Shown piece after piece: positions 32,161 through 51,893 of a DNA stretch of 64,000 nt. The DNA is taken from the IMG/VR virus record IMGVR_UViG_3300008266_000015, one strand, 5' to 3'. The first letter of the stretch is position 1; every line of letters starts with the position of its first letter. The DNA is from a virus. A model generated the notes under the pieces. It did not search any database, was not told the origin of the DNA, and saw only the letters and a program-made list of their open reading frames with translations. The translations under genes and the position numbers were made by a program.

Positions 32161-32679
32161 ATGAAAGAATTTGAAAGAATGCAGAAGTTAGCTTTTGGCA
32201 ACACAATTCCAGCATTAAAACATATTGAAAATCAACCAGTTTCTTTAACTGAAAATGCACTTAAAGCTAAAATTAAAGAACTAGTACATTCATCTTTAGG
32301 TGAAGCTAAGAAAAAGAAAAAAGAAGAAGATGTAGCTCCCCAAGAAGATGTAAATATAGAAATGGATGCTACTGAAGAAATACCTGGAGATACTATGGCA
32401 CCTGAATCAGTAGATGGAGCAGATATTGATCCAACAGTTAAATCAATCCAGGATTCATTACAAAAAGCATTTGCTCAAGCTAAAACATTGGGTGATGAAA
32501 AACTTATCGCTCAAATTGGTAATACAATTACTATGCTTGTTAGAACACAAGTATTAGGTGGGCAACAAGTAGCTGAATCATTAAATGAAGAAGAAACAGA
32601 TTATCAAGAAGGATACAGACATGGATACAATAACGGATATAGAGATGGTGTAGAAGGAGAAGAAAAAGAAAAATTTTAA
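32161..32679 (+). CDS. Putative internal head protein with scaffold-like peptide
   Basis: N-terminal FERMQKLAFG; SLTE, SLGE and SLNE sites. Confidence 0.75.
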   Translation: MKEFERMQKLAFGNTIPALKHIENQPVSLTENALKAKIKELVHSSLGEAKKKKKEEDVAPQEDVNIEMDATEEIPGDTMAPESVDGADIDPTVKSIQDSLQKAFAQAKTLGDEKLIAQIGNTITMLVRTQVLGGQQVAESLNEEETDYQEGYRHGYNNGYRDGVEGEEKEKF

Positions 32680-32705
32680 TAAAAACAAATAAAAACAAAC
32701 AATTT

Positions 32706-32879
32706 ATGAATTCACAAGAACTATTTGAACAAATTAGTGGGTTATTCGAAACAGCAAAAGAAAATCACGCTGAAACAACTAAAGCCGCTAAAGGTAGAGC
32801 ACGCAAAGCACTTTCTGAAATAAAAAAACTCATTGCAGCCTACAACAAAGCTTCTGTTGCTGAAGTAAAAGCAAAGTAA
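32706..32879 (+). CDS. Unannotated 57-aa histone H1-like (Hc1-family) protein
   Basis: MNSQELFEQISGLFETAKENHAETTKAAKGRARKALSEIKKLIAAYNKASVAEVKAK; KAAxxRARKA signature. Confidence 0.75.
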   Translation: MNSQELFEQISGLFETAKENHAETTKAAKGRARKALSEIKKLIAAYNKASVAEVKAK

Positions 32880-32880
32880 A

Positions 32881-33342
32881 ATGGCACAGCTTACCCCAAG
32901 AGAAATAGCAATCAAAAATCAACTCTACAATCAATATAAACAAAATAAAGATGAGTTTATAAAAGATTATGGATCTGATGCTGAGCGAGTTATGTTGGGG
33001 AGAGCAATTAAATTAGCAAAATCAATGGCTGCAAAAGACGACAAGCAAAAAATTAAGGAAATGATTAAAAAGGCCCTTCAAGGGCCTATTTCTGAAACTG
33101 AAGAAATCAATTCAATTGAATACGTACAAAATCGTAGACCAGTTGAAAGTAATCCTGAAGATGTAGTTAAGTTGGATGTTCCACTACTAATTCGTATAAT
33201 GGAATATGCTAGAGAAGATGCTAAAACAGACATGGATTTACATTTTGCAGCAGAAAACATGATTCAGTTATCAAAACCAAACAGAATTCTCAATATGGGG
33301 GATTATGAAAGTATTGTTTCTCCATACGTAAAAATTGATTAA
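32881..33342 (+). CDS. Hypothetical, putative internal head protein
   Basis: Two modules separated by KIKEMIKKALQGPISE. Confidence 0.7.
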   Translation: MAQLTPREIAIKNQLYNQYKQNKDEFIKDYGSDAERVMLGRAIKLAKSMAAKDDKQKIKEMIKKALQGPISETEEINSIEYVQNRRPVESNPEDVVKLDVPLLIRIMEYAREDAKTDMDLHFAAENMIQLSKPNRILNMGDYESIVSPYVKID

Positions 33343-33829
33343 AATGACTAAAAGCGAGTTTAGAGATAGAATTAAATCTTTAGTTAAACAAGTATACTCA
33401 GGTGCAACTAAATCCACAGAAGTAGATTTAGATACAGTATCAGCTGTATCTTTAGATACAACTCGTTTTCCAGTTCTAGCTAAATTCCCAACACTTAGAG
33501 ATACCATTATTAAATTGCTAACAGATCAATATGATTTGTTTTTAAAAGACATTGAATGGGTAGCACCCCGTCCTACTACATTTCGTATTGTATTAGCAAA
33601 TGATCAAATATTTTATTTGATATTTACTGATAGAACATGGATTGGTAAAGTAGAAGGTAAAAAATATTACCTATTGAACATAAGTGAAGAACAAAATTGT
33701 GTTGAATCAATAGCTAGAATTTTATCTTATGGTGCTAAAACTGAAGTTAAAAAAGAAGAAGTAGCACCTGAAGCACCAGTAGAAACACCAGCAGAAACTC
33801 CTGTTGAAGAAACACCACCAACAGTATAA
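33335..33829 (+). CDS. Hypothetical protein
   Basis: Coupled ORF; N-terminal helix EFRDRIKSLVKQV; Pro/Glu tail. Confidence 0.7.
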   Translation: MIKMTKSEFRDRIKSLVKQVYSGATKSTEVDLDTVSAVSLDTTRFPVLAKFPTLRDTIIKLLTDQYDLFLKDIEWVAPRPTTFRIVLANDQIFYLIFTDRTWIGKVEGKKYYLLNISEEQNCVESIARILSYGAKTEVKKEEVAPEAPVETPAETPVEETPPTV

Positions 33830-34965
33830 TGGACGCATTAGATTTATTTTTTAAAAAATACTCTTACAAATTTCCTAAAGGATATCCTGACATGAATAAT
33901 GAGCAGGATATCAATATTTTAGCTAATTTGTTAGAAGGATTAGGAATTGACTTAAGTGAAGACAAATCCTCAGATAGACAAGAAGCTAAAGAAATTTTAA
34001 AAAGAGAATTGGATTTAACTGATCAAGATTTTAAAGATAGTGGATTGCAATTTTATGTTTTAGTACCTGGAAATCAAAGACTATCATTTATAGACAAAAT
34101 TGAAAACATAGATACAGGAACAGATAAAAAGTTTAACTACAATTCCACTCCATCTGCATTCTCATCTTTAGGTTATTTTATGTATGGTGGTGTAAAATTT
34201 GGAATTAAACCTAGTGAAAAACAAGGTGGAAAATCTGCAGGTTTAGATAATGAAAATATCTTTTATAATACTGTTACTTCATTATTAAAAAATGGTCCCA
34301 AAGATATAAAAATTACAGATGGTGAAAAAGAAGTAGTATTTAAAGATATTACTGAAATTGAAGAAACAGGTAGAAAAACATCAGGATACTCTAAATCAGA
34401 TATTGATTTTTATAGTAATGGAACAAATAAAGGTGGCTTATCTTTGAAAAAAGAAAATGCAATATATTGGGAATCTTCCGATGTTAGATTTAAAAATGAA
34501 GTAAACAACTTAGTTAAAGCTATTACTAGTGGTAAATTAGGTGATGAAATATCATATGTTCCATATACTGATGCTCGAGGAAATACAGATCCCGGCATTA
34601 TTAAAATGTATAATAAGAAAGAAAATAAACCGATTGCTGGTATTATAATAAAAGATCTACCTCAACAAGATATACAACAAGTTATTTTTGGTAATGACAA
34701 TGTACCAGTGGCTGTTGCTACTTGGAGATCAAGTGATTTTACTATTGATGGAGATACAATTATAGCTAAAGCTAAAAAATTATATACTACATTAAAAGAT
34801 ATTGAAAAGGATAAATCACTCCCCATATTGAATGTTAGACATGATAAAACAAGAAGATCATCAAAAGGATTAAGAGCTTTATTACAAACTGAAAAATCTT
34901 TATATAAAGATGAATCTTTAAAAGGCAACAATGTTGAACTTTCATATAACGAAATAATGTCATAA
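33829..34965 (+). CDS. Putative PD-(D/E)XK restriction-like nuclease, internal head protein
   Basis: E...KSDI...GLSLKK catalytic-like pattern after an N-terminal YSYKFPKGYPD leader ending DLSE. Confidence 0.55.
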   Translation: MDALDLFFKKYSYKFPKGYPDMNNEQDINILANLLEGLGIDLSEDKSSDRQEAKEILKRELDLTDQDFKDSGLQFYVLVPGNQRLSFIDKIENIDTGTDKKFNYNSTPSAFSSLGYFMYGGVKFGIKPSEKQGGKSAGLDNENIFYNTVTSLLKNGPKDIKITDGEKEVVFKDITEIEETGRKTSGYSKSDIDFYSNGTNKGGLSLKKENAIYWESSDVRFKNEVNNLVKAITSGKLGDEISYVPYTDARGNTDPGIIKMYNKKENKPIAGIIIKDLPQQDIQQVIFGNDNVPVAVATWRSSDFTIDGDTIIAKAKKLYTTLKDIEKDKSLPILNVRHDKTRRSSKGLRALLQTEKSLYKDESLKGNNVELSYNEIMS

Positions 34966-34973
34966 TATTTATA
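34966..34973 (+). promoter_or_regulatory. Late promoter motif TATTTATA
   Basis: 3 nt before ATG 34977. Confidence 0.65.
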
Positions 34974-34976
34974 GGT

Positions 34977-35684
34977 ATGGAACGTATTAAACAACTTATT
35001 CGAGAAGTACTTTCTACTCCACCCAAGAAAGAATCATGTAACTGTGGTTGCCATTCTTGTGAAAACGTAGGAAATAAAGGTCCAGTTCTAAACGAAAGCT
35101 TAAATGCTAAAATCGTAATGACTGAAAACATGAAATATCATGTTGACAACAGATTACCACTTACAGAAAACACATTTCGTTATGGCTCACAAGCATTCTT
35201 AGATTTATGGGCTGAAGCTCGTTATCTATATTCTCGTAATGCTATTCATGTAAATGATGACGATAAAGAAATTTTACTTGAAACTAATTTAGGTGAATAC
35301 GGAATGTATGAAGGTAAAAAAGTGCCTTTAGATTTACCTATGTTAGAAGATGATTCATTAGCGGCTGATGAAGAGGAAATAGCTGACGAACCTATATCTG
35401 AAACTGATAAAAAGAAAAACCCACCAATTGGAAAACCAAAACGTGGTGGTTCTAAAAAGTTTTATGTATATGTTAGAGACAAAGGTAAAATTAAAAAAGT
35501 ATCATTCGGGGGAACTACCGGATTGTCTGTTAAAATAAATGATCCTAAAGCAAGACAAGCTTTTGCCGCTCGCCATAGATGTGCTCAAAAAACAGATAGG
35601 ACAAAACCTAGTTATTGGTCATGTAGAATCGGTCGTTATTGGAAGCAATTAGGAGGAGCAAAAAACTTTAGCGGATATTGGTAG
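34977..35684 (+). CDS. Putative internal head protein with basic C-terminal domain (DUF5754-like)
   Basis: KKFYVYV...KKVSFG...FAARHRC...YWSC; N-terminus MERIKQLIRE. Confidence 0.7.
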   Translation: MERIKQLIREVLSTPPKKESCNCGCHSCENVGNKGPVLNESLNAKIVMTENMKYHVDNRLPLTENTFRYGSQAFLDLWAEARYLYSRNAIHVNDDDKEILLETNLGEYGMYEGKKVPLDLPMLEDDSLAADEEEIADEPISETDKKKNPPIGKPKRGGSKKFYVYVRDKGKIKKVSFGGTTGLSVKINDPKARQAFAARHRCAQKTDRTKPSYWSCRIGRYWKQLGGAKNFSGYW

Positions 35685-35701
35685 GAAATCGGCCTTACCA
35701 A

Positions 35702-35709
35702 TATTTATA
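35702..35709 (+). promoter_or_regulatory. Late promoter motif TATTTATA
   Basis: Upstream of the homing endonuclease. Confidence 0.65.
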
Positions 35710-35721
35710 ATAAAATAAAAT

Positions 35722-36348
35722 ATGGCGTATGTTTATATTGTAATCAATAAAGTTAATGGGAAAAAATATATTGGTTCCTCTCGAAAATCCCAAATAGATG
35801 AAAATTATTATGGTAGCGGCAAAGCAGTAAAAGATGCTCTAAAGAAATATGGTAAAGAAAATTTTATAAGAGAAATACTGTGGGAGGGTGAAGGAAATGC
35901 TCGCGATATAGAAACATGTTATTTAATAAAATTTAATGCTTCTAAGAATCCAATGTTTTATAATATGACTAATGATGCTAGAGGAAATGATCTTCATAAA
36001 GAAGAAACAAAACTCACTGTTAGTGAAAAACTAATTGGGAGAAAATTTACGAAAGAGAGATGTGACAAAATATCTAAAGCTAAGAAAGGATCCACAACCT
36101 CTAAAAAAGGCAAACCTGATGGCCCCAAACCAGGAGTATCAGAAGCTCATAAAGGTAGAATTAGTCCTAATAAAGGAAAAGGAAATCAAGTAGCTTTATA
36201 TACAATATCTGAAGAATATATCAGAACTTATTCTAGTTACTATGACCTAGCTATTGATCTCCAAATAAATCCAGAAACAGTAAGATGTCAACTTATTGGA
36301 AAATCTCAAACTATTAAAAATAAGCAATATAAAGCGCAATATGTATGA
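35722..36348 (+). mobile_element. Free-standing GIY-YIG homing endonuclease with NUMOD-type DNA-binding repeats
   Basis: AYVYIVINKVNGKKYIGS...YYGSG...FYN; KISKAKKG and SEAHKG repeats; C-terminal HTH. Confidence 0.8.
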
Positions 36349-36363
36349 TAGAAATGTGGTAAT

Positions 36364-36741
36364 ATGAAACTATTAGAACTTAAAAAACTTATTCAAGAAG
36401 AACTACGTATAATACGTGAAAGTTCTGCTTCAAAACTTTATAAAGTAGAAGGACTATTAGTAACAAATACTGATAAAAAAACACAATCCCAAATACTTTC
36501 AGATATTAGATCAATCCCAGGTATCACAACAGTAGATGCTCAAGAATATACTCCTCGTTTACCTAAAAAAGGATACACATACGATAGATTAACCATCAAG
36601 GTTGATCCATACCCATACATTAAAAAAGACGGTAAATTTGATATAGAAACGATTAATCAAGTAATCGCAAGTATTGGTGGGATTAAAGGAATAGTTAAAT
36701 TTAGAGTTGATAACCCCCAATTAATTAATATTGGGATATGA
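36364..36741 (+). CDS. Putative internal head protein
   Basis: MKLLELKKLIQEELRIIRE leader; ferredoxin-like/ACT-like body. Confidence 0.7.
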   Translation: MKLLELKKLIQEELRIIRESSASKLYKVEGLLVTNTDKKTQSQILSDIRSIPGITTVDAQEYTPRLPKKGYTYDRLTIKVDPYPYIKKDGKFDIETINQVIASIGGIKGIVKFRVDNPQLINIGI

Positions 36742-37121
36742 TTAAGTTAATTAATCTTCTAGAACAAATTCTTCAAGAGAAAGCTGATCGCTGTAAGCGT
36801 ATTGCTGATCGTAAGTACGATAAACCATCTGCTTACAAATCAGGTGCTATCGTTAGATGTCGTAAAGGTAATATTTGGAAGGATTTAAAAGAAGAAGAAT
36901 TAAATGAAAAAGTAAAAGAAACACTTCGTACTTGGTTTAAACGTAAAGGTGCACCAGGTAAAGAAGGCGGATGGGTTGATTGTAATACTTGTAGAGACGG
37001 AAAATGTAAATCATGTGGTAGAAAAGAAGGTGAAAAACGTTCTAAATATCCTTCATGTCGTCCTACACCAGCTCAATGTAAAACACCTGGTAAAGGTAAA
37101 AAATGGGGGAAAACAAAATGA
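36738..37121 (+). CDS. Basic Cys-rich putative internal head protein
   Basis: MIKLINLLEQILQE leader; SAYKSG, WVDC, CGR and YPSCRP modules. Confidence 0.75.
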   Translation: MIKLINLLEQILQEKADRCKRIADRKYDKPSAYKSGAIVRCRKGNIWKDLKEEELNEKVKETLRTWFKRKGAPGKEGGWVDCNTCRDGKCKSCGRKEGEKRSKYPSCRPTPAQCKTPGKGKKWGKTK

Positions 37122-37641: not shown

Positions 37642-38171
37642 AATCAACTGAATTAAGACAACTTATCCGCGAATCAATCAATGAATATATTCGTGAAATC
37701 GATGAAGCAGGAACAAAAGCTGGATTACAAGCTAAAATAGAAGCAACTGAAGGTGCTATTAGCAAACGTGAAAAAATGGCTAATATGGAAGGCATTGATG
37801 AAGCTTATCATGAAATGCTTGATAAAGGCAAAATGAAAGAAATTGGTAATGAAGTTAAGGCATTAAAAAAAAGTTTAGATAAATTGAAAAAACAATTAGA
37901 TAAACTTAATTCAAAAGGTACTAAAACTGAAAAACCTGAATCTGAAGAAAAAGAAATTGTTGATGAAGTAAATATTGATGAAACATTTCCTGAATCTGGT
38001 GCTCAACTAGAAGAAGATAATAATGAGGATTTACCCCCTGCACCATCAGAAGAGGAAATAGCAGCTAATCAAATATACGAAATGCTCCATATGCAAAAAC
38101 TAGCAGGTATTATTTCAGAATCTGAATATGTTGCTAAAGTAAAAGAAGTAGAAAAAGCATCTAAAAAATAA
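37638..38171 (+). CDS. Putative internal head protein
   Basis: MKSTELRQLIRESINE leader; C-terminal MLHMQKLAGIISE. Confidence 0.75.
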   Translation: MKSTELRQLIRESINEYIREIDEAGTKAGLQAKIEATEGAISKREKMANMEGIDEAYHEMLDKGKMKEIGNEVKALKKSLDKLKKQLDKLNSKGTKTEKPESEEKEIVDEVNIDETFPESGAQLEEDNNEDLPPAPSEEEIAANQIYEMLHMQKLAGIISESEYVAKVKEVEKASKK

Positions 38172-38177
38172 CATATA

Positions 38178-38257: not shown

Positions 38258-38263
38258 TCTAAT

Positions 38264-39709: not shown

Positions 39710-40375
39710 ATGGAATTAAGAAAATACATCCGCGAAATGGTTGAGACTGAGCTTGATGAAATGGCTCGTATCTCTACTAACATCAAAATTGGTGATCCTG
39801 AAAAAGCATCCATTGCAAAAGAGCTATATGCTGGAACTTGGTATGGTGATATGATTGATTATGTAGAGGAAGCAGGAGACGTTGGTATTCCTCAACCTGA
39901 ACTAGCAAGAATGTTAGGTAAATCAGGCCAACAAGCAATCAATCCCAAAGTTAGAGATTTCCTTGAATCAAACATCTTCACTAAAGGTGAGTTATCAGTA
40001 GCTAAAAAAGAAAAACCAGAAGCTAGTGGTATTAAAGGTCGCCCAACCTCAGAAAAAACATTAATGGCTAAAGATGTTAATTCTAAAATGGAAGCAGATG
40101 CTAACTATAAACCATCAGAAGATGAATTAGCAATATTGGGGGCTGAGTTTATTGAAAAACTTAGAGCACGTGTTAAAGGTACTTTAAGACGTGGTCGTCC
40201 TGCACTTCCTTCTAAAGCAAAAGATGGCATGATAGCAGCTATGAAAAAAATAGGAGATGAAGATATAGACATGGATGGGGATATTGATGATGAGGATTTG
40301 GAAGATATTGCTGAATCAACTTCAATTAATGAATCGTTTACTCGTATGCAGAAATTAGCAGGAATTATTAAATAA
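39710..40375 (+). CDS. Putative internal head DNA-binding protein (wHTH plus AT-hooks)
   Basis: Leader MELRKYIRE; GIPQPELARMLG; KGRP and RRGRP; C-terminal FTRMQKLAGIIK. Confidence 0.75.
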   Translation: MELRKYIREMVETELDEMARISTNIKIGDPEKASIAKELYAGTWYGDMIDYVEEAGDVGIPQPELARMLGKSGQQAINPKVRDFLESNIFTKGELSVAKKEKPEASGIKGRPTSEKTLMAKDVNSKMEADANYKPSEDELAILGAEFIEKLRARVKGTLRRGRPALPSKAKDGMIAAMKKIGDEDIDMDGDIDDEDLEDIAESTSINESFTRMQKLAGIIK

Positions 40376-42075: not shown

Positions 42076-42656
42076 TAAATCAAAACCGATTTTATTTAAT
42101 TATCATAGGAATACTAACTATAATTCTGTTAATGCAAAAATGTGGAGGGGGATGTAATTTTATTCCCGTTCTTCCACCTCCTGTAACCATTAGAATAGTA
42201 GATACTGTTTATACAGTAACTACAAAGGAGATTCCTACTTATGTCCCAAAATGGAAAACAATTACTAAATACGTTCATGATACAATTGAAACCGTGGATA
42301 CTACATATGTTATTGGGGACTACTACTCTACTTATTTTTATCAAGATTCATTAATTAATGATACATTATGTTTTTACATTAATGATTCAATCTCAGAAAA
42401 CAAAATCAAATCAAGAGATTTAAAATATATAATGTCATTTCCAACTATAAAAATACACGATATAGTAATTCAAAATAAAAACGAATATTATGTTGGTTTA
42501 GGATTAATTGGAAATCAAAAAGGAATTAATTATTTTGGTCCTGAATTTTTATTGAAAACTAAGAAAAAAGATGTTTATGGAATAGGAATAGGAATGGATG
42601 GAAATCTAAAACCTAACCTAAGTCTAAGAACATATTGGAAAATAGGCAAAAAATGA
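42072..42656 (+). CDS. Membrane-anchored protein with C-terminal amphipathic beta strands (spanin-like candidate)
   Basis: N-terminal TM/lipobox-like segment, multiple D-T/S-x sequons, ends in beta strands YWKI. Confidence 0.55.
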   Translation: MINQNRFYLIIIGILTIILLMQKCGGGCNFIPVLPPPVTIRIVDTVYTVTTKEIPTYVPKWKTITKYVHDTIETVDTTYVIGDYYSTYFYQDSLINDTLCFYINDSISENKIKSRDLKYIMSFPTIKIHDIVIQNKNEYYVGLGLIGNQKGINYFGPEFLLKTKKKDVYGIGIGMDGNLKPNLSLRTYWKIGKK

Positions 42657-44227
42657 GTCAACCAGATCTTAAACAAATTATAAGGGATGAATATATTAAG
42701 TGTGCAAAAGATCCAGCACACTTTATGCGTAAATACTGTTATATACAACATCCACAACGTGGGCGAGTTATATTTAATTTATATCCGTTTCAAGGTAAAG
42801 TACTAAATTTATGGAAAGACAATCCATATTCAATGGTACTTAAATCTAGACAGTTAGGTATATCAACATTAGCAGCAGGATATTCTTTATGGTTAATGAC
42901 ATTCCATAAGGATAAAAATATTCTTTGTATAGCTACTAAGCAGGATACTGCTAAAAATATGGTTACTAAAACCAAGTTTATGTATGATAATTTACCATCA
43001 TGGCTTAAAGTAGAATCTGAAGAAAATAATAAATTAACATTACGATTAATTAATGGTTCTCAAATCAAAGCAACCTCAGCAGCAAGTGATGCTGGTCGAT
43101 CAGAAGCCGTTTCGCTTCTAATTATAGATGAGGCTGCATTTATTGAAGGTATTGAGCCAATTTGGGCTTCAGCTCAACAAACCCTAGCAACAGGTGGTGG
43201 TGCAATTGTATTATCAACACCTTTTGGTACAGGTAACTGGTTCCATAAAACATGGGTTAAAGCAGAAGCACAAGATAATAACTTCTTACCTATTAAATTA
43301 CCTTGGTATGTTCATCCTGAACGTGATCAAGCTTGGAGAGATAAACAAGATGTAGAATTAGGTGATCCTAGATTAGCAGCACAGGAATGTGATTGCGATT
43401 TTACTACATCTGGGGATGTAGTTTATTATCCAGAACACATTGAATATATGATGTCTACTCACGTAGTAGAACCATTAGAGCGTCGTGGGGTAGATGGAAA
43501 TTTATGGGTTTGGGAATCACCAGATTATACTAGAAGTTATATAGTAATAGCAGATGTTGCTAGAGGAGATGGAAAAGATTTTTCTGCATTTCACGTATTT
43601 GATATAGAAACAAATGCCCAAGTAGCAGAATTTAGAAGTCAACTTCCACCTAAAGAATTTGGATATCTATTAGTAGCCATTGCTACAGAATATAATGAAG
43701 CACTATTAGTAATTGAAAACGCAAATATTGGCTGGTCAGCTATAGATTCAGTAATAGAAAGAGGATATAGAAATCTATATTATTCACCTAAAAGTGATGT
43801 TGCAACTTCTGATTCGTATATTAACAGATACGAAGATACATCCAAAATGACCCCAGGTTTTACTACATCATTAAAAACACGTCCTTTAGTAATTAACAAA
43901 GGTCGTGAATATTTTGGAGATCATAGTGTAATTATTCGATCAAAACGTTTGATTGAAGAAATGAAAGTATTCATTTGGAAAAATGGTCGAGCAGAAGCCC
44001 AATCTGGATATAATGATGACTTAGTTATGGCTTATAGTATAGGAATGTACTTAAGAGATACAGCATTAAAAAACAAACAGCAAGGATTAGAATTAACAAG
44101 AGCAACATTAAATAATATATCAAGAATATCTCCACAACAAGGTGCTTATTTTGCAACGGGAATGGACAATCCATATTCTATGAAGGTAAATGGAGAAGGA
44201 AATGAGGATATTAGTTGGCTTTTATGA
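42653..44227 (+). CDS. terL: Terminase large subunit (gp17-like)
   Basis: LYPFQ, KSRQLGIST Walker A, IIDEAAF Walker B, STP, ADVARG, DDLVMA. Confidence 0.95.
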   Translation: MSQPDLKQIIRDEYIKCAKDPAHFMRKYCYIQHPQRGRVIFNLYPFQGKVLNLWKDNPYSMVLKSRQLGISTLAAGYSLWLMTFHKDKNILCIATKQDTAKNMVTKTKFMYDNLPSWLKVESEENNKLTLRLINGSQIKATSAASDAGRSEAVSLLIIDEAAFIEGIEPIWASAQQTLATGGGAIVLSTPFGTGNWFHKTWVKAEAQDNNFLPIKLPWYVHPERDQAWRDKQDVELGDPRLAAQECDCDFTTSGDVVYYPEHIEYMMSTHVVEPLERRGVDGNLWVWESPDYTRSYIVIADVARGDGKDFSAFHVFDIETNAQVAEFRSQLPPKEFGYLLVAIATEYNEALLVIENANIGWSAIDSVIERGYRNLYYSPKSDVATSDSYINRYEDTSKMTPGFTTSLKTRPLVINKGREYFGDHSVIIRSKRLIEEMKVFIWKNGRAEAQSGYNDDLVMAYSIGMYLRDTALKNKQQGLELTRATLNNISRISPQQGAYFATGMDNPYSMKVNGEGNEDISWLL

Positions 44228-44244: not shown

Positions 44245-46110
44245 ATGGCAGATACAAGTATTTTTACTAGATTAAAAAGATTATTTTCAACTGATGTCAT
44301 CATCCGTAATGAGGGTGGGAATCAAATTAAAGTAATGGATGTTGATTCAATTCAACAAAGTGGACAATATAAAAACAATTCATTAATTGATAGATATAGT
44401 AGGATATATTCCGCGAATGCTACCTCACTTTATGGTCAACAATTAAATGTTAACTATCAATATTTAAGAGCCCAATTATACTCAGATTACGATGTAATGG
44501 ATAATGATGCAATTGTTGCTTCTGCTCTAGATATAATCTCAGATGAATGTACATTAAAAAATGAGATGGGTGAGGTACTTCAAATTCGTAGTTCAGATGA
44601 AGATGTACAAAAAATTCTTTATAACTTATTCTACGATGTTTTGAACATAGAATTTAATATGTGGTCGTGGATTCGTCAAATGAATAAATATGGTGATTTC
44701 TTTTTAAAATTAGAAATCGCTGAAAAATTTGGAGTATACAATGTTATTCCTTATACCGCATATCATATCATGCGCCAGGAGAATTATGATAAAGAAAACC
44801 CTTCAGCAGTAAGGTTCGCATTTTCTCCTGATGGATATGTTGGTGGAACTGCAGGTCAATATCCTGTCCCTAACCAGAGGCAAGATGAAGCAAATGGGAT
44901 TTATTTTGATAATTATGAAATGGCTCATTTTAGATTATTAACTGATGTTAACTATCTTCCTTATGGTCGTTCATATATTGAACCAGCTCGTAAATTATTT
45001 AAACAATATGTGTTAATGGAAGATGCTATGTTGATTCATAGAATCTCTCGTGCCCCAGAAAAACGTATTTTTTATATCAATGTTGGTGCTATTCCTCCTA
45101 ATGAAGTAGAAAACTTCATGAAGAAGACTATTACCACAATGAAAAAAACACCATATATAGACGAAAAAACAGGTGAATATAATTTAAAATATAACATGCA
45201 AAACATGTTGGAAGATTTTTATATTCCTGTTCGCGGTAATGATCAAACAACTAAAATTGATACCACTAAAGGTTTAGAATATAATGGTATTGAAGATGTA
45301 GCTTATTTAAGAGATAAATTGTTTGCTGCTTTAAAAGTACCTAAAGCATTTATGGGTTATGAGAAAGACTTAACTGGTAAAGCAACATTAGCGGCTGAAG
45401 ATATTCGTTTTGCTCGTACAATTGATAGATTACAACGTATTGTACTTTCTGAATTATATAAAATAGCATTAGTGCATTTATATACTCAAGGGTATAGAGG
45501 CGAAACATTAACTAATTTCGAACTTTCGTTAACTACCCCATCAATTATATACGATCAAGAACGTATTGCATTAATGAAAGAAAAAGTAGATTTAGCTAAA
45601 AATATCATGGAAGCCCAACTACTGCCTACAGATTGGATCTACCATAATGTATTCCACTTTAGTGAAGATCAATTTGATGAATATAGAGATCTTATTATAC
45701 AAGATGCTAAGCGTAAGTTTAGATTAGGTCAAATTACTGAAGAAGGAAATGATCCATTAGAAACAGGAAAATCATATGGTACACCACATGATTTAGCTTC
45801 ACTTTATGGTAAAGGCAGGACAATGACAGATCCAGGAAATGTACCTGATGGATATGCTACTGATGTAGAATTAGGTCGTCCTAAAGAAAAAGTTACAAAT
45901 ATCAATACTCAAGATAATACTTTAGGAAAAGATAGATTAGGTAGACAATCAATGAAAGTAGATGATCAGCCTGATTTCAATAACAAACCTATCAATGAGA
46001 TTACATATCTAAAAAATAAACAGTTTTTAAATGAAATAGAAAAAAAATTAGTTTTCCAAATAGATAAAGCAAAAGAATCATTACTTGATGAAAATCAATT
46101 GCGAGATTAA
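44245..46110 (+). CDS. Portal protein (T4 gp20-like)
   Basis: LMEDAMLIHRISRAPEKRIFYINVG, EDFYIPVR, ALKVPK. Confidence 0.95.
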   Translation: MADTSIFTRLKRLFSTDVIIRNEGGNQIKVMDVDSIQQSGQYKNNSLIDRYSRIYSANATSLYGQQLNVNYQYLRAQLYSDYDVMDNDAIVASALDIISDECTLKNEMGEVLQIRSSDEDVQKILYNLFYDVLNIEFNMWSWIRQMNKYGDFFLKLEIAEKFGVYNVIPYTAYHIMRQENYDKENPSAVRFAFSPDGYVGGTAGQYPVPNQRQDEANGIYFDNYEMAHFRLLTDVNYLPYGRSYIEPARKLFKQYVLMEDAMLIHRISRAPEKRIFYINVGAIPPNEVENFMKKTITTMKKTPYIDEKTGEYNLKYNMQNMLEDFYIPVRGNDQTTKIDTTKGLEYNGIEDVAYLRDKLFAALKVPKAFMGYEKDLTGKATLAAEDIRFARTIDRLQRIVLSELYKIALVHLYTQGYRGETLTNFELSLTTPSIIYDQERIALMKEKVDLAKNIMEAQLLPTDWIYHNVFHFSEDQFDEYRDLIIQDAKRKFRLGQITEEGNDPLETGKSYGTPHDLASLYGKGRTMTDPGNVPDGYATDVELGRPKEKVTNINTQDNTLGKDRLGRQSMKVDDQPDFNNKPINEITYLKNKQFLNEIEKKLVFQIDKAKESLLDENQLRD

Positions 46111-46122
46111 TATTTTTTCATA

Positions 46123-46130
46123 TATTTATA
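46123..46130 (+). promoter_or_regulatory. Late promoter motif TATTTATA
   Basis: Recurrent motif. Confidence 0.7.
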
Positions 46131-46148
46131 ATTAAAATAAACATTTAG

Positions 46149-47009
46149 ATGTTAATTAAACATTCGAAATTTAAAAACACAGGTATTTTATTCGAGCTTT
46201 TAGTACGACAAATTACCTCAGATACTCTATCTGGCAAAACATCAGAGGCTACTAATATTCTAAAAAAATACTTTAGTAAAACTGAGCTAGGAAGAGAGTA
46301 TAAATTGTATGATAGTTTACTTAAACGCACCAACTTAACCGAAGGTAAAGCTGAAGTTGTCATTAGTACAATTTTAGAAAGTGCAAAACAGCTAAATCGC
46401 TCAGCTCTTAAGAGACAAAAATATAATTTAATTAATGAGATTAAAGATCACTATAGTTTAGAGGAATTTTTTAAAACAAAACTCCCTCATTATAAATCTC
46501 AAGCCGCTATTTATACATTAATAGAATCAACGGGTAGTGATAAAAAACAATCTCACGAGCAGATTATTACTAATAGATTAGTACTGTTGGAACATTTAAC
46601 TTCCTCTACAAAAAAGACAAACAAGCCTAAAGATAGTATTATGGAAGAGTTTTCTCAATATGATAGAGATACTCGTATTTTAACATATAGAATTTTATTA
46701 GAAAAATTCAATACCAAATACTCAGATTTCAGCACTAATAAAAAATTAATACTTAAAGAATTCATCAATAGTGTAGATAACACAGATAAATTAAAAATAT
46801 TCTACAATTCTAAAATTGGTGAAATGAAAAATGAATTAGTTTCGTTAAATAAAAAAACTAAAAACCAAGTTACTAAAATTAAAATAAATGAAGTAGCAAC
46901 GTTTTTAGTTGGGTTGGGAAAAAACGATAAAGTAAATAACGAACATATAGTAAATCTACTTCAATATTGTGATTTGCTAGAAGAACTTCAACAAGCTAAT
47001 GGAAAGTAA
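46149..47009 (+). CDS. Head-module hypothetical protein
   Basis: Helical 286 aa between portal and protease. Confidence 0.75.
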   Translation: MLIKHSKFKNTGILFELLVRQITSDTLSGKTSEATNILKKYFSKTELGREYKLYDSLLKRTNLTEGKAEVVISTILESAKQLNRSALKRQKYNLINEIKDHYSLEEFFKTKLPHYKSQAAIYTLIESTGSDKKQSHEQIITNRLVLLEHLTSSTKKTNKPKDSIMEEFSQYDRDTRILTYRILLEKFNTKYSDFSTNKKLILKEFINSVDNTDKLKIFYNSKIGEMKNELVSLNKKTKNQVTKIKINEVATFLVGLGKNDKVNNEHIVNLLQYCDLLEELQQANGK

Positions 47010-47808
47010 CGACCCAAAAAAATCATTCGAATTAACACCATCAGAAACAGATCCTGAAACAGGTAGAGTTACTTTTGATGTTAAATACAATGCTGACTTC
47101 CCAGGAATATATAAAGCATTTAAAAAGCTTAACGAAGAATATAAGAAATTTTTATTATTTGATGAAGTAAAAAAAGATCCTAAATTTAAAGAGATATATA
47201 AAGGATTTAATTACTTATTCAATCAATATAAATCTCACATGAGGGAAAATTATCCTAAACAATATAGTCTTTTAAAAGCAGCAAACGAGGAAATGTTAAA
47301 GGAACTCGTTCAAAATTATTTAAAAGAAATGAGTGCCACAGGAGCAGGAGTAAATGCAGCTACTTATACATCAGGACAAAGTGAAAACACAGCTCAGAAA
47401 TATGCTTTTAATCCAAATAAAAAAGCAAAAGGAGCCCAAAATATCTATTACTATAAATTAGGATGGAAACCAGTTGATGCTGAAAAACTTCATAAGCAAG
47501 CCAAAGGTTTAGAACATAAAGATCTATGGACTAAAAAATTAGAAGAAAACGAATCAACTGACTCATACATAAATTCATTAAACATACAAGATCCGTCGTT
47601 AAAACAATTTATTGACACCAGAATGACCGATTTTGATAAGATTGAGGACAAATTAAATACATTACTTCCGTTGCTTAAAAGTGCTAAAACCGATACAATG
47701 GAATATTACAAAACCAATCCTGATTTTAAAATCAAATACGGTACCGATTTGGCAGTAGATTATTTAGATGATTTAATAACTTTATTTAAAGAAAAAAAAA
47801 TAACATGA
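46999..47808 (+). CDS. Putative internal head/prohead core protein
   Basis: Modules separated by YLKE|MSATG and KLEE. Confidence 0.7.
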   Translation: MESNDPKKSFELTPSETDPETGRVTFDVKYNADFPGIYKAFKKLNEEYKKFLLFDEVKKDPKFKEIYKGFNYLFNQYKSHMRENYPKQYSLLKAANEEMLKELVQNYLKEMSATGAGVNAATYTSGQSENTAQKYAFNPNKKAKGAQNIYYYKLGWKPVDAEKLHKQAKGLEHKDLWTKKLEENESTDSYINSLNIQDPSLKQFIDTRMTDFDKIEDKLNTLLPLLKSAKTDTMEYYKTNPDFKIKYGTDLAVDYLDDLITLFKEKKIT

Positions 47809-49814
47809 CACTTCAAGAACAATATAACTCAATTAAGAGTGGCAACGGAAATAAAGACCAATTCTTAAAACACGCTCGTAGCTTATTTCCAGAATACTTT
47901 AATCAATATACTGACTTTAATACAGCAACTAATGTATTGAAATCAAAACAAATCATTAGCGAAGCAGCAGGTGGTGTTGTAGCTAAAGGATTTGATATCT
48001 ACGATTGGAAGAAAATTTTAGCTGAAGAGGTTAAAGCCGAAGAAAAAGAAACTTCAAAAGAAGTTAAAGATAAACAAGCACACGCCTACGATAATTCAGA
48101 CACTAAAAATGCTGACAATATTAATTTCAATGAAATCATGAAAGGCTTTTATGCTGAAATGAGAGATGAGAAAAATGCTGGAAAAACAGGTGATGAAATT
48201 AAAGCTATGGTTGTTAAAAACTTAGCTAAGGATCCTTTATTCTATACTAAAGACGGAATGTTTGGAGTTAAAGGTGTAGGATATACAACTGAAGCTCCTG
48301 GTTTAGGTGAACCTAAAGAACCAAAAGGCAAACATAAAGCATCAGGATATGGTGATTTAGATACTGAAGTAAAAATTAAAGAGCCAAAATCAAATGTTCA
48401 AGACTCATTAGGTGATCAAGAAGCAGAAACTACAATGCCTAAAAAAGTAAAAGAAATGCCTGACAAAGGTGTTACTGGTGTAGAAAAGAGAATCAAATTA
48501 AAAGAAAATATCCAAGATAGAGCAGATGCAATTAATGATTTTGCTCGTTTAGTAAAAACAGGAACAAATGATGAGATAGCTAATACTTTTGAAAATAATA
48601 GAGATTACGAAACAACTATTAAAGTTTCCGAAATGATAAAAATCCTAAAAAAATATGGAAAATATGATGATATAATGAGCATGATAGATGATGATTTCAC
48701 CGATCCTGCTGGTGGAAGAGGTTTATCTAGTCATTTAGAAGAAAAAATTGGTATGTTCAATGATCCTATAGGATATAAAAAATCTGGATTAAGTGATATA
48801 GATAAAATGTTTACTAAGGAATTACAAAAAGACAATACATATACCATATATAAGAATGGAAAGATAGTAAAAACTGGAATTGAAGGTACTGGTAATGCTA
48901 ATGCATGGATAAATGATGAAATGAGAAAATTAAAAGAAGCAATGGATCAAGGTCCTGTATCTATTAAAGGAAAAACAGGTCCAACTGGTGGAACACAAAA
49001 GATTCCCCGTGCTTTATTTTTAGATAAAGAAGTAATTAGTACGATAAATGATGCTCAACCTGGAAGTATTAAATTAATTTCCAAACCAGGAGATAAACGT
49101 GTGTATATGTATGTTTCTTCATTTGTTAAAAATGCTTTAGATGAATTAGAGAGAGGTCGTTCTAGTAGAGAAAAACTTAAAAAACAATCTAAATTAGCAG
49201 ATGTACTTGCTGATAAACTTCCATCTGCTATTAGAGGTAAAATTAAAAAAGAAATTAATCCTAAAATGGATTCTGGTTTAAAAATGCATTATGTTGATTT
49301 AAATATATCTCCTAAAAAAGATAAAACAGGATATTGGGTTTTAGCTAAAGGTGAAAGTGCACCATTGGTAGCAGAACAAAAACTTCGTTCATTGATTCGT
49401 AATCTTATTAAGGAAGAATTAGTAAACGAAATATCACCTGAACTCTTTAAAAGAGCAACTGATGTATCTCGCGAACGAGGTCAAGATCGTAGAACAATGA
49501 ATATGGGTGAAACATTTTTTAACAAATTCAAAGGTAGACCTTTAATGGGTAGTACTATTGCAGATGTATCTTATGCTAAACCACAATCCGGTGATTATGA
49601 AGAAGTTATTGTAAAAATTGAAGTACCTTCATCTGTTGTTCCTGGCGAGACAAAATTTAGATTTATTTACTATGATGTTAGAAAAGACCAATGGGGTGTA
49701 GATAAAGAAATAACTAGAGCAGACGCTCGTATATTATCACTTATAGCTCAACATATCAATCCTGACACTCGATACAAATCAGGTGGTGAAGGATTCCAAA
49801 TTAAAGGATACTAA
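47805..49814 (+). CDS. Large modular putative internal head protein
   Basis: Many [LI]xE-bounded modules; EQKLRSLIRNLIKEELVNE; NLAKDPLFYTK. Confidence 0.7.
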   Translation: MTLQEQYNSIKSGNGNKDQFLKHARSLFPEYFNQYTDFNTATNVLKSKQIISEAAGGVVAKGFDIYDWKKILAEEVKAEEKETSKEVKDKQAHAYDNSDTKNADNINFNEIMKGFYAEMRDEKNAGKTGDEIKAMVVKNLAKDPLFYTKDGMFGVKGVGYTTEAPGLGEPKEPKGKHKASGYGDLDTEVKIKEPKSNVQDSLGDQEAETTMPKKVKEMPDKGVTGVEKRIKLKENIQDRADAINDFARLVKTGTNDEIANTFENNRDYETTIKVSEMIKILKKYGKYDDIMSMIDDDFTDPAGGRGLSSHLEEKIGMFNDPIGYKKSGLSDIDKMFTKELQKDNTYTIYKNGKIVKTGIEGTGNANAWINDEMRKLKEAMDQGPVSIKGKTGPTGGTQKIPRALFLDKEVISTINDAQPGSIKLISKPGDKRVYMYVSSFVKNALDELERGRSSREKLKKQSKLADVLADKLPSAIRGKIKKEINPKMDSGLKMHYVDLNISPKKDKTGYWVLAKGESAPLVAEQKLRSLIRNLIKEELVNEISPELFKRATDVSRERGQDRRTMNMGETFFNKFKGRPLMGSTIADVSYAKPQSGDYEEVIVKIEVPSSVVPGETKFRFIYYDVRKDQWGVDKEITRADARILSLIAQHINPDTRYKSGGEGFQIKGY

Positions 49815-49818
49815 AATT

Positions 49819-50436
49819 ATGAAGCCATTACTTATAGAAGTCACCCCATTCAATGTATCACCTAAATCACTTACTGAGTCTCGTGATAGGATATCTGGCA
49901 ACCCAATAGTTGAAGGGATATTAGCTACCTGTGAAGTAAAAAATGGTAATGGTAGATATTATGCTAAAGAGTTATGGGAACGTGAGATAGATAAGTATAT
50001 GGATATGGTTAGAGAAAATAGAGCTCTAGGTGAACTAGACCATCCAGATTCTCAAATCATTAACTTAAAAAATGTCTCCCACAATATTAAAAAAATATGG
50101 TGGAAAGGAGATATGGTAATGGGTGCAATTGAAATTCTACCTACACCATCAGGAAATATCCTTAAAGCATTAATTGAATCAGGTATTAAGGTAGGTGTTT
50201 CATCTCGTGGAATGGGTAGTTTAAAACAAGTAGGTGAAGTATTAGAAGTACAAGATGACTTTGAACTACTATGTTTTGATTTTGTTTCCACACCTTCAAA
50301 TCCAGGTTCATGGATGCATCCTGTAGGACAAATACATGAGGGATTATCTACATCAATTAATTCAAACCCCTATTCTAAAGTTAATTCTATACTTACTGAA
50401 ATACTTTGTTCAAACGGTACTTGTCCAATATTTTAA
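49819..50436 (+). CDS. Prohead core protease (T4 gp21-like)
   Basis: KNGNGRYY, ALGELDHP, GVSSRGMGS, DFVSTPS; start at MKPLLIE. Confidence 0.95.
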   Translation: MKPLLIEVTPFNVSPKSLTESRDRISGNPIVEGILATCEVKNGNGRYYAKELWEREIDKYMDMVRENRALGELDHPDSQIINLKNVSHNIKKIWWKGDMVMGAIEILPTPSGNILKALIESGIKVGVSSRGMGSLKQVGEVLEVQDDFELLCFDFVSTPSNPGSWMHPVGQIHEGLSTSINSNPYSKVNSILTEILCSNGTCPIF

Positions 50437-50438
50437 CT

Positions 50439-50612
50439 ATGGAACAACAACAATCAAATGAAGAATTTCTCCATATGCAAAAACTTGCAGGTTTAATTAC
50501 TGAAGAAGAATATAAAGCTCATTTATGGTATGATCAATATCTTAAAAATATATCTAAATCTTTTGAAAAATTAAAACAAACATTAAAAGATGAAGGTCAT
50601 GATATTAAATGA
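50439..50612 (+). CDS. Small head protein with scaffold-like peptide
   Basis: MEQQQSNEEFLHMQKLAGLITEEEY; start moved to 50439. Confidence 0.7.
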   Translation: MEQQQSNEEFLHMQKLAGLITEEEYKAHLWYDQYLKNISKSFEKLKQTLKDEGHDIK

Positions 50613-50721
50613 AGATAATAAATCAATTTTAGATTTAGTAAATTATATAGATTCTAAGATTATATCTCTTCGTAAAGAAAATAAACTTTTAGAAATAATT
50701 AATTTTTTAAATAAACTTTAA
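50599..50721 (+). CDS. Possible 40-aa protein
   Basis: MILNEDNKSILDLVNYIDSKIISLRKENKLLEIINFLNKL fills the gap before the terminator. Confidence 0.35.
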   Translation: MILNEDNKSILDLVNYIDSKIISLRKENKLLEIINFLNKL

Positions 50722-50749
50722 CCCCTCCTAAAATAGTCTTTTAGGACCG

Positions 50750-50779
50750 AGGCGCAGAAATGCGCCTTTCTTTTTTTTT
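50750..50779 (+). terminator. Intrinsic terminator
   Basis: AGGCGCA-GAAA-TGCGCCT plus long T-tract. Confidence 0.85.
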
Positions 50780-50805
50780 CTCTGCATTTTTGAATAATTT
50801 TTATA

Positions 50806-50813
50806 TATGTATA
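50806..50813 (+). promoter_or_regulatory. Late promoter variant TATGTATA for scaffold/capsid
   Basis: One mismatch to the motif; follows the terminator. Confidence 0.55.
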
Positions 50814-50918
50814 TTAGAATGTGCCCAATTTATGAGGCATTGCTTATAATAATTTTATTACGTTTCGAGGATTCTCCTCACATTAAACGTATTTCCAACA
50901 AACAAATTTAAGGAAAAA

Positions 50919-51893
50919 ATGGCAACAAACAGAGATTTGCTTAAAGAAGCAATCGCGGACGCTAAATCTGTTAAAGAAACAGCAATAGCAAACGCAAAAG
51001 CTGCTCTCGAAGAAGCATTCACTCCGTATCTTAAGGAAAAACTCTCCGCTAAACTCCAGGAAATGGAAAACGAAGAGGAAATTAAGATGGAGGAAATGTA
51101 TGAAGATGAGACAGAAGAAATGAAAGAAGAAAAAGAATCTATGGATGAAATTTCATTAGATGAACTTCTTGCTGAACTTGAAGATGAAGAAATAGAGGAA
51201 TCTATTTTCGAAGCTAAAGAGGAAGAAGAAGAATCCGAAGAAGAGGAATCTGAAGAGGAAATGTCTATTGAAGACATGGATGAAGATGATTTGAAATCTT
51301 TCATTGAAGATGTTATTAAAGACATGGTAGCTGCAGGTGAACTTGAAGCTGGTCATGAAGGTATGGAAAATGAAGAAGGTGCTGAAGAAGAAATAGATGC
51401 TGAAGAAGAAGAAATTGATGAAGAAGTTAATCTTGATGAACTTTTAGCTGAAGAAGAATTAGACGAAGAAATTGGTCTTGATGAACTTTTAGCTGAACTT
51501 GAAAGTGAAGAAGTTTATGAAGAAAAAGACAAGATGCAAGAGGAACTTGAAGAAGCTTATGAGGCAATCAAAACTCTTAAATCAGAACTTAACGAAATCA
51601 ATTTGTTGAATGCTAAACTTCTTTACACTAACAAAATCTTCCGTAATAAGTCTTTAACCGAGTCACAAAAAGTAAAGGTTTTAACAGCATTTGATAAAGC
51701 TACGTCTAAAAAAGAAGCACAATTAGTATATGAAACTCTATTAGAGAATTTGAAAACACCAGTTAAAAAATCTCCAATTCAAGAGTCATTAGGTTCCGCT
51801 TCTAAAGCATTAGGTACAGCTAAATCAACACCAATTATCGAAAACGATGCTTTCTCACGTATGCGTGAATTAGCATTCGGAAACAAAAAGTAA
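50919..51893 (+). CDS. Prohead scaffolding protein (gp22-like)
   Basis: Very acidic coiled coil between protease and MCP; C-terminal FSRMRELAFG. Confidence 0.85.
   Translation: MATNRDLLKEAIADAKSVKETAIANAKAALEEAFTPYLKEKLSAKLQEMENEEEIKMEEMYEDETEEMKEEKESMDEISLDELLAELEDEEIEESIFEAKEEEEESEEEESEEEMSIEDMDEDDLKSFIEDVIKDMVAAGELEAGHEGMENEEGAEEEIDAEEEEIDEEVNLDELLAEEELDEEIGLDELLAELESEEVYEEKDKMQEELEEAYEAIKTLKSELNEINLLNAKLLYTNKIFRNKSLTESQKVKVLTAFDKATSKKEAQLVYETLLENLKTPVKKSPIQESLGSASKALGTAKSTPIIENDAFSRMRELAFGNKK

Follow-up and report, generated by a model that had tools for sequence, protein, structure and literature searches.

A peptide shared by a T4-like head scaffold and unrelated phage proteins as a probable portable capsid-targeting propeptide

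The window, that is, the whole stretch of 64,000 nucleotides analysed here (IMG/VR virus record IMGVR_UViG_3300008266_000015), encodes a terminase, a portal protein, a protease and tail proteins, and the gene order of its head module is the same as that of T4 (Table 1). The protease is presumed to be the enzyme which cuts at [ILVM]xE. The scaffold ORF, which lies between the protease and capsid genes, gave no PHROG or Pfam match. Its best-conserved blocks are residues 1-40, residues 221-260 and a C-terminal tag, which begins 13 residues from the end of the ORF after a flexible linker rich in Ser, Ala, Gly and Lys. In the capsid protein residues 1-60 are conserved, together with [ILV]xE sites at residues 7-9, 33-35, 49-51 and 58-60; this region is a candidate propeptide and also a candidate receptor for the tag, the latter being a role that we infer.

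Table 1. Head-module genes, tagged proteins and associated features of the window
Feature	Position	Strand	Match, tag or other property	Candidate cut site
Promoter-like box ATATTTATA	32139..32147	+	22 nt upstream of tagged gene 32161	
Tagged protein 1, 172 aa	32161..32679	+	N-terminal tag, residues 4-13 (32170-32199)	LTE, 32245-32253
Tagged protein 2, 177 aa	37638..38171	+	internal tag near C-terminus, about 38082-38111	IYE, 38073-38081; ISE, 38112-38120
Tagged protein 3, 221 aa	39710..40375	+	C-terminal tag, 40337-40372	INE, 40325-40333
Portal protein, gp20-like	44245..46110	+	phrog_213, E = 9.5e-60	
Prohead maturation protease, T4 gp21 family	49783..50436	+	phrog_207, E = 1.1e-58	
Tagged protein 4, 57 aa	50439..50612	+	tag near N-terminus, about 50466-50495	ITE, 50496-50504
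Head scaffold (core) protein, 324 aa	50919..51893	+	very acidic, pI 4.1; position matches T4 gene 22	
Scaffold C-terminal tag F-S-R-M-R-E-L-A-F-G-N-K-K	51852..51890	+	motif core 51852-51881	P-I-I-E, 51831-51842
Major capsid protein, gp23-like, 561 aa	51934..53619	+	phrog_138, E = 2.7e-68	
Capsid protein residues 1-60	51934..52113	+	conserved	

Five copies of the motif F-x-[RH]-M-[QR]-[KE]-L-A-[GF] are found in the window, one at the scaffold end and four in mutually unrelated ORFs, and every one of the peptides lies in the ORF and at the position given in a preliminary description of this DNA. When the window was translated in six frames, the expression M[QR][KE]LA[GF] matched these five places and no others, all on the + strand and in real ORFs; the chance expectation is 0.005 by an analytical estimate and 0.01 by 200 shuffles. 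In addition, an HMM built from related tags scores the five at 21-29 bits and the next best match in the window at 8.5 bits, so that the scores are cleanly bimodal. The four non-scaffold proteins fall into four separate BLAST clusters, in agreement with the earlier statement that they are otherwise unrelated. The copies are not identical, because in the clade of the window the scaffold has M-R-E-L-A and the carriers have M-Q-K-L-A. Furthermore, the window copies differ in synonymous codons (Leu TTA, CTA or CTT; Gln CAG or CAA), so it is the peptide that is under selection, and the copies are not a DNA repeat. In aligned tags F, M, L and A never change, the polar positions do, and the tags usually close with I-I-K or L-K-K. 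Such a peptide would form an amphipathic helix that shows F, M, L, A and I on its hydrophobic face and is closed by a Gly cap and a short hook of Ile/Leu-Lys.

The four tagged proteins differ in layout. Tagged protein 1 is a member of a 20-member family of N-tagged proteins. Tagged protein 2 has an N-terminal amphipathic leader as well as its tag, and in its homologues the tag is either C-terminal (L131) or 179 residues before the end (L084). Tagged protein 3 starts with an N-terminal leader, which is followed by a small helical core, two AT-hook-like GRP motifs, an acidic linker and the tag. In 26 homologues the tag hardly varies at F, M, Q, K, A and G, and the AF2 model of the protein, of moderate confidence, predicts the tag as an isolated helix (residues 208-216) past a disordered linker. 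Tagged protein 4, whose gene comes directly after the protease gene, has conserved homologues in four related loci (L007, L051, L134 and L193). The other three genes neighbour nucleotide-metabolism genes and a homing endonuclease, with no obvious structural block. All four proteins are acidic (pI 4.6-4.8), in contrast to the internal proteins of T4, which are basic, so some of them may be accessory core proteins and not delivered cargo. A second, unlike N-terminal leader is present on many proteins of this phage and could be the true analogue of the T4 capsid-targeting sequence (CTS) instead of the tag.

Candidate cut sites lie on the protein-body side of the tag, as judged from the sequences. 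Among the tags collected from related phages, an [ILVM]xE follows the tag within 8 residues in 79 of the 85 N-terminal cases (93%) and 8 of the 9 internal ones and in 2 of the 87 C-terminal ones, while it stands ahead of the tag in 84 of these 87 (97%); the background frequency is 0.24-0.26. In the window, the adjacent xxE sites proposed earlier are real for the scaffold (IIE, just before the tag), for tagged protein 3 (INE, before the tag), for tagged protein 2 (IYE and ISE, one on each side) and for tagged protein 4 (ITE, directly past the tag). In tagged protein 1 the HIE suggested as a site has its Ile at P2 and not at P3, and the first canonical [ILVM]xE, LTE, comes 18 residues past the tag.

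The box ATATTTATA has 15 copies on the + strand of the window and one on the - strand, and 12 of the 15 + strand copies are situated 12-56 nt upstream of gene starts, those of tail and head genes included. In the relatives it is enriched upstream of N-tagged genes (36/85 versus 277/1798). The carriers had been described as late proteins, which fits gene 32161 by its box and gene 50439 and the scaffold gene by their place in the head operon; genes 37638 and 39710 have variant boxes only.

The scaffold tail itself is widespread. Of 80 related loci from IMG/VR, nearly all have it at the end of the ORF that precedes the capsid gene, and it still ends the scaffold in Flavobacterium phage immuto (with W replacing M) and Microcystis phage Mel-JY01, whose capsid identity is 50-58%. 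A weaker form is found in Rhodothermus phage RM378 (37% capsid identity) and in the 484-kb phage LR756508. The C-terminus of T4 gp22, when inspected, had a different ending without the tail motif. By these sequence comparisons, the tail motif is old. Non-scaffold proteins with a copy were seen only in the clade of the window and in a single case in immuto, which makes the scaffold copy older than the others.

In total, 181 unique tags were collected: 87 stand at the C-terminus, 81 of these in scaffolds, 85 stand at the N-terminus and 9 lie inside the protein. These raw counts overstate the independent events, because many instances, above all the scaffolds, share ancestry. Near-complete genomes of the clade have 3-5 copies each. 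The non-scaffold carrier bodies of the clade form at least 59 unrelated families (59 BLAST clusters), a lower bound as the sample is partial, and they are mostly ORFan and rapidly turning over. In one family the tag is C-terminal, or internal with extra domains after it; another has paralogues with the tag at opposite ends; an orphan tag ending in a stop codon was seen once. Moreover, when long contigs were recovered by the tag alone, 4 of 5 proved to have a capsid gene of the same lineage.

These observations are best explained if the tag is a portable capsid-targeting propeptide which copies the docking tail of the scaffold and is released by the gp21-type protease, and we consider this explanation probable. 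The peptide [DE]-x-F-x-[RH]-M-[QR]-[KE]-L-A-G-[IL]-[IL] would be the C-terminal docking tail of a T4-like head scaffold, which other proteins of this phage and its close relatives would have gained at either end or internally. Tagged proteins would then be drawn into the assembling prohead via the scaffold's own receptor, and the protease would cut [ILVM]xE between tag and body, freeing the mature protein in the head and setting loose a peptide of about 14 residues. A cut at P-I-I-E would likewise detach the scaffold from the receptor. The tagged proteins may end as internal or ejected proteins or as core components that are degraded. The at least 59 families, the three placements and the body-side cut sites strongly support the portable, position-independent and built-to-be-clipped element of the preliminary description. 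As for the receptor, the gp23-like capsid protein is the most likely candidate, through its inner face or its N-terminal propeptide of about 60 residues, with a chance that is about even. That the tag would dock there is suggested by analogy with 80alpha, P22 and the herpesviruses; in P22 and herpesvirus scaffolds, the extreme C-terminal tail contacts the capsid protein.

A more specific version, possible but doubtful in our estimation, is that the tag binds the capsid propeptide of about 60 residues and that the tag-coding stretch is a recombination joint at which ORFan payload modules are swapped, fused or split. A joint is suggested by the finding of the tag at either end, in fusion proteins and once as an orphan with a stop, often behind a promoter-like box; if the propeptide were the receptor, a single protease sweep would clear tag and receptor together.

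Alternatively, the tag may be a core-assembly element which binds the scaffold (residues 1-40 or 221-260) or the portal and not the shell, the scaffold polymerising head-to-tail and the tagged proteins co-polymerising with it. Packaging and clipping would be unchanged and the receptor alone would differ. The two further conserved scaffold blocks are possible receptors, the leaders of tagged proteins 2 and 3 resemble the scaffold N-terminus as if both ends had been copied, and the T4 CTS has been described as conferring affinity for the core, with an unknown receptor (PMC9026906, PMC9958956). In 80alpha, however, it is the capsid protein that is contacted by the extreme C-terminal tail past a flexible linker (PMC5644958), and we regard core binding as unlikely.

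The acidic and partly coiled or disordered, scaffold-like nature of the four carriers in the window, and the 57-aa gene between the protease and scaffold genes in the head operon, where T4 has its small core genes, would also suit proteins that compete with or modulate the contact between scaffold and capsid, as SaPI1 CpmB does, or gp67/gp68-like core proteins that are later degraded. The competitors would take up scaffold sites and in this way adjust capsid size, timing or stoichiometry, and CpmB is a precedent for competition through a shared scaffold tail (PMC5644958). This is nevertheless improbable, because at least 59 unrelated, mostly ORFan families with fast turnover suit variable cargo better and because a body-side cut would free the body intact, not merely degrade it.

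It is still less credible that the tag serves to dock the prohead protease or to be recognised by it, as an exosite or degron, and plays no part in localisation. Although [ILVM]xE stands beside the tag and a gp21-type protease is encoded nearby, the capsid protein has its four conserved sites and no tag, the scaffold has many further xxE sites distant from the tag, and T4 gp21 has been described as having very few cleavage determinants (PMC9026906). Finally, a motif unrelated to capsids, which would bind a host factor on which several phage proteins depend, such as a chaperone or a membrane component, would agree with the place of three non-scaffold carriers among metabolic genes. It can hardly be reconciled with the scaffold's extreme C-terminus bearing the oldest and best-conserved copy, with a cut-site orientation that fits propeptide logic or with the confinement of the motif to one capsid lineage.

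The addressing of proteins to the interior of T4-type heads is a long-standing open question. Here the address would be the scaffold's own docking tail, and whatever binds that tail would be the receptor. Immuto, a relative in culture, has a tagged scaffold and one N-tagged protein; a search for virion proteomes turned up none for any relative. If confirmed, a tag of about 14 residues that appears to work at either terminus and has a built-in release site would be of interest for loading phage capsids and capsid-derived cages. In abundant aquatic Bacteroidota phages, the ORFan carrier families, numbering at least 59 in this partial sample, become candidates for proteins that lie inside the head or are ejected. 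If the propeptide and recombination reading is true, this is a natural plug-and-play system by which a T4-type head is loaded with dozens of unrelated proteins, and the partner of a CTS-type address would be identified for the first time.

Among known systems the T4 CTS comes nearest, with mimicry of the scaffold tail as in 80alpha and CpmB added to it. In T4, CTS propeptides direct their proteins to the prohead, and gp21 cuts them off (PMC9026906); they occur on the internal proteins IPI-III and on Alt, and their receptor has been described as 'mysterious' (PMC9026906, PMC9958956). Both systems have a short terminal peptide common to unrelated proteins, a gp20/gp21/gp22/gp23-type head module, an [LI]xE site of gp21 type after the peptide, fast-evolving and variable carriers, and cassettes made of the peptide and a promoter-like box. 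Unlike the T4 CTS, with which it has no sequence similarity, the present tag is the scaffold's own C-terminal tail (gp22 ends otherwise) and is, by sequence logic, N-terminal, C-terminal or internal and not strictly N-terminal. Packaging and cleavage have been demonstrated for the T4 CTS and are predicted for the present tag. In 80alpha, the last 16 residues of the scaffold gp46, a helix and a hook (RIIK), bind the capsid N-arm, and CpmB copies them (PMC5644958). Here, too, about 16 C-terminal scaffold residues, with a putative amphipathic helix and Ile-Ile-Lys-type hook, follow a flexible linker and are copied by unrelated proteins, in the similar pattern hydrophobic-x-x-hydrophobic-Ala ... 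I-I-K. The tails are alike in pattern, and homology is not claimed; the present capsid lineage is T4-like with a gp21 protease, and the copies, in contrast to CpmB, are encoded by the phage and not by a parasite, numerous, sometimes N-terminal and accompanied by protease sites.

Herpesvirus pre-VP22a and the protease precursor have a common C-terminal tail which binds the major capsid protein and is cut at the M site. The likeness lies in a capsid-binding scaffold tail on two proteins and a maturation protease that cuts just upstream to release the core; the sharing in herpesviruses, however, comes from nested in-frame genes, with another protease family, and here from a portable peptide on unrelated proteins. 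Encapsulin cargo-loading peptides attach varied cargo to the inside of an HK97-fold shell, as is proposed here for another short terminal peptide, without sequence resemblance. To our knowledge, a portal, DNA, a scaffold and a maturation protease are all absent from encapsulins, and the peptide stays on the cargo. An encapsulin-type loading peptide does not fit the terminase, portal, protease and tail genes or the bracketing of the tag by protease sites; of the two comparisons, the T4 CTS is closer than the uncleaved encapsulin peptide to which the tag had at first been likened. Engineered P22 virus-like particles are loaded with enzymes fused to a C-terminal scaffold fragment (PMC9962691). 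Their scaffold fragment is over 100 residues long and there is no release by proteolysis, but the cargo is likewise placed on the capsid-binding end of the scaffold, and the system is a man-made counterpart of what appears to be the strategy of this phage.

The scaffold protein of this T4-like phage ends in a short peptide of the form F-x-[RH]-M-[QR]-[KE]-L-A-[GF], called the tag below, and four other proteins of the window (carriers, named by the start of their ORFs: 32161, 37638, 39710 and 50439) bear it as well. The preliminary description had placed the peptide at five positions, and all five were borne out: six-frame translation of the window gave exactly five matches to the core M-[QR]-[KE]-L-A-[GF], all in plus-strand ORFs and against a chance expectation of 0.005-0.01, and a profile made from related tags gave each of the five copies 21-29 bits and nothing else in the window more than 8.5 bits. 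For the source phage this count covers the 64-kb window. The carriers had also been called otherwise unrelated, and the four indeed have no other similarity detectable by BLAST, apart from an N-terminal leader common to 37638 and 39710. Carrier 32161 has the variant L-A-F-G, which also occurs in scaffolds; the other three carriers do not follow the scaffold variant, and relatedness would confound any link between the two. A DNA repeat or a recombination artefact as the source of the common peptide is ruled out, since the five copies differ at synonymous sites, that is, the peptide is conserved and not the DNA. All four carriers are acidic and one lies within the head operon. Neither they nor the scaffold gave a match in PHROGs or Pfam, and a literature search with the motif string found no paper describing it.

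The head genes form a T4-type module, listed in the table below, in which the protease gene is two genes upstream of the scaffold. Among cultured phages, Flavobacterium phage immuto is nearest in its capsid protein (58%), followed by Microcystis phage Mel-JY01 (50%) and Rhodothermus phage RM378 (37%). The oxidoreductase-like protein lies between two tagged genes and itself has neither tag nor leader.

Features of the window discussed in the text
Feature	Position	Strand	Remarks
Large terminase	42635-44227	+	T4-type head module
gp20-like portal	44245-46110	+	T4-type head module
Three ORFan genes	between portal and prohead protease	+	head module
Prohead protease, gp21 family	49783-50436	+	phrog_207, E = 1e-58
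57-aa ORF (carrier 50439)	between protease and scaffold	+	inside head operon
Scaffold, 324 aa, very acidic	50919-51893	+	head module
Capsid protein, gp23-like	51934-53619	+	head module
FAD/NAD(P)-binding oxidoreductase-like protein, 453 aa	38299-39660		Pyr_redox_2 N-terminus; phrog_12409 "dehydrogenase"
ATATTTATA(A) box, examples	11874, 18290, 22146, 26962, 32139, 34965, 35701, 41221, 46122, 57444, 62549	+	
Leader-bearing ORF starts	11887, 27018, 27812, 34977, 36364, 36738, 37638, 39710, 41245	+	

The scaffold copy of the tag is, on sequence comparison, ancient. In nearly all of 80 IMG/VR loci collected by capsid similarity (60-83% identity), the ORF immediately before the capsid gene has P-I-[IV]-E-[NS]-x-x-F-x-R-M-[RQ]-[EK]-L-A-G-[LI]-x-K as its ending, and the scaffold has three conserved blocks, of which this tail is one. 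The scaffold of Mel-JY01 has the same terminal motif, that of immuto has it with W replacing M, and those of RM378 and of the 484-kb phage LR756508 have R-I-K-R-L-A-G-L and R-M-Q-K-L-A-D, respectively, in its place; the end of T4 gp22 has no such motif. Because the distant relatives Mel-JY01 and RM378 have the motif on the scaffold only, the scaffold copy is concluded to be the original and the others mimics. As short-peptide BLAST is too insensitive (tblastn of a 27-residue tag stretch against cultured phages gave immuto alone, at E = 2), pattern scans were chosen. In immuto the scaffold, recognized by its position, composition and both termini, is immuto26A_204 (L001:18725-19966), which is annotated as a "DNA polymerase phi-like protein"; its acidic low-complexity region has probably misled the annotation. 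Immuto also encodes an N-tagged protein, immuto26A_188, which has an I-T-E site. The literature mentioning immuto deals with DNA modification and polymerases and has nothing on virion proteins, and a search for Mel-JY01 found no paper.

On other proteins the tag is frequent throughout the lineage. Near-complete relatives have 3-5 copies per genome in pattern and profile scans, all pattern-scan matches sharing the strand of the capsid gene, and a control pattern gave no matches in the same relatives. The collection-wide pattern scan matched more than 118 stretches, and together with the other loci this gave 181 distinct tag instances. Scaffolds account for 81 of the 87 C-terminal ones; 85 are N-terminal, usually as M-K-K-Q-I-L-S-E-E-F-x-R-M-Q-K-L-A-G-I-I-T-E, and 9 internal. 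Five long contigs turned up through the tag alone: four carry a capsid gene of the same lineage, and the other is a fragment with a completeness of 37%. The idea of a portable, position-independent tag is upheld by N-terminal, C-terminal and internal placements on 59 non-scaffold BLAST clusters, 48 of which are singletons; ten large tagged proteins from relatives gave no credible Pfam domain. One carrier family even has paralogues with tags on opposite ends, and in the 37638 family the tag is C-terminal or internal. Most members of the 39710 family have it at the C-terminus; in several, I-T-E and a further, variable domain come after it, which makes the tag internal. In six homologues of 39710 (P0044, P0061, P0065, P0076, P0081 and P0083) the tag is followed by I-T-E or N-E and an additional domain of 60-130 residues which differs between phages, as though fusion at the tag had joined an N-tagged gene from downstream. 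An orphan tag, M-N-K-K-Q-I-N-E-E-F-T-R-M-Q-K-L-A-G-L with a stop directly after it, ends a 95-aa open frame in a relative (L088/L100, G002:C1, about 119221-119262, minus strand); it may be what is left of a gene, or a cassette without content.

Sites of the kind cut by gp21-type prohead proteases, whose T4 consensus is [LI]xE (PMC9026906), accompany the tag. Within eight residues after it, [ILVM]xE is found in 79 of 85 N-terminal and 8 of 9 internal instances and in only 2 of 87 C-terminal ones, and it precedes 84 of the 87 C-terminal tags, against 24-26% in random windows of the same proteins. The site is therefore found on whichever side the protein body lies, the pattern expected of a removable propeptide. 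The xxE sites noted beforehand as adjacent to most copies are real, although for 32161 the first canonical site, L-T-E, is 18 residues downstream.

The invariant tag positions F, M, L and A, then I/L, fall on one helix face, the variable Q/R and K/E are polar, and after the helix come Gly and an Ile/Leu-Lys end of two to three residues. For the 39710 family, AF2 (mean pLDDT 69) models the tag as a separate helix, residues 208-216, behind a disordered acidic linker. A PDB profile search with this family gave no match, Foldseek of the model against PDB gave no significant match, and an Atlas feature search gave unnamed viral clusters only, all below 0.9; because the winged-helix match at Foldseek rank 11 (probability 0.47) amounts to no more than a hint, a DNA-binding fold is not claimed. 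The 39710-40375 protein has a small helical core and two conserved AT-hook-type G-R-P motifs (K-G-R-P-T-S-E-K and R-R-G-R-P), and ORF 1140-1478 has three R-G-R-P repeats; by these motifs both are possible binders of AT-rich DNA. The window itself is AT-rich (G+C 27-35%).

A ATATTTATA(A) box occurs 15 times on the plus strand and once on the minus strand, and 12 of the 15 plus-strand ATATTTATA copies are 12-56 nt upstream of gene starts, those of tail, head, homing-endonuclease and tagged genes among them. Comparable to T4 TATAAATA, the box may be a late promoter of the phage. In relatives, boxes of this type precede 36 of 85 N-tagged genes versus 15% of other ORFs, and this enrichment and the strand bias are compatible with late expression of tagged genes, short of proof. 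A GIY-YIG-type homing endonuclease (phrog_314, 35722-36348), with its own ATATTTATA box, lies among the tagged and leader-bearing genes. The leader, a second common peptide, is amphipathic, [LI]-x-x-[LI]-[IL]-[RQ]-E, and stands at many plus-strand ORF starts, often ending in [LI]xE; a P-loop kinase-like protein has it, as does a large nucleotidyltransferase-like protein, and the N-termini of the scaffold and capsid protein resemble it. Carriers 37638 and 39710 have both tag and leader.

The best reading of these sequences is that the tag is a capsid-targeting propeptide of the kind of the T4 capsid targeting sequence (CTS), borrowed from the docking tail of the scaffold. We infer binding, cleavage and packaging from sequence anatomy and comparative statistics, by which targeting plus clipping seems fairly probable. 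Given both, the capsid protein has about an even chance of being the receptor, and the core itself is the less likely candidate, to be named tentatively. A prediction of the capsid protein with the last 40 scaffold residues, made from alignments, scored 0.00 with the partner poorly folded, an outcome that weighs neither for nor against binding. Some of the window carriers, instead of being delivered to the host, may serve as accessory proteins of the core.

Among known systems, the tag would work like the T4 CTS (PMC9026906) and differs from it in sequence and position, and the N-terminal leader may be its closer analogue. The conserved N-terminal 60 residues of the capsid protein, with four conserved sites of the [ILVM]xE kind, are similar to the 65-residue propeptide of T4 gp23 (PMC9958956). 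The last 16 residues of the 80alpha scaffold, an 11-residue amphipathic helix and a 5-residue hook with R-I-I-K, bind the N-arm and A/P cleft of the capsid protein, and SaPI1 CpmB copies this tail (PMC5644958). The tag is predicted to have the same layout, a helix then a short Ile/Leu-Lys end, but here it is the phage itself that encodes the mimics, which are many and predicted to be removable. The likeness to encapsulin cargo loading proposed earlier is more distant than those to the T4 CTS and 80alpha/CpmB. The interest of the finding is that the tag offers a handle on the receptor of the CTS.
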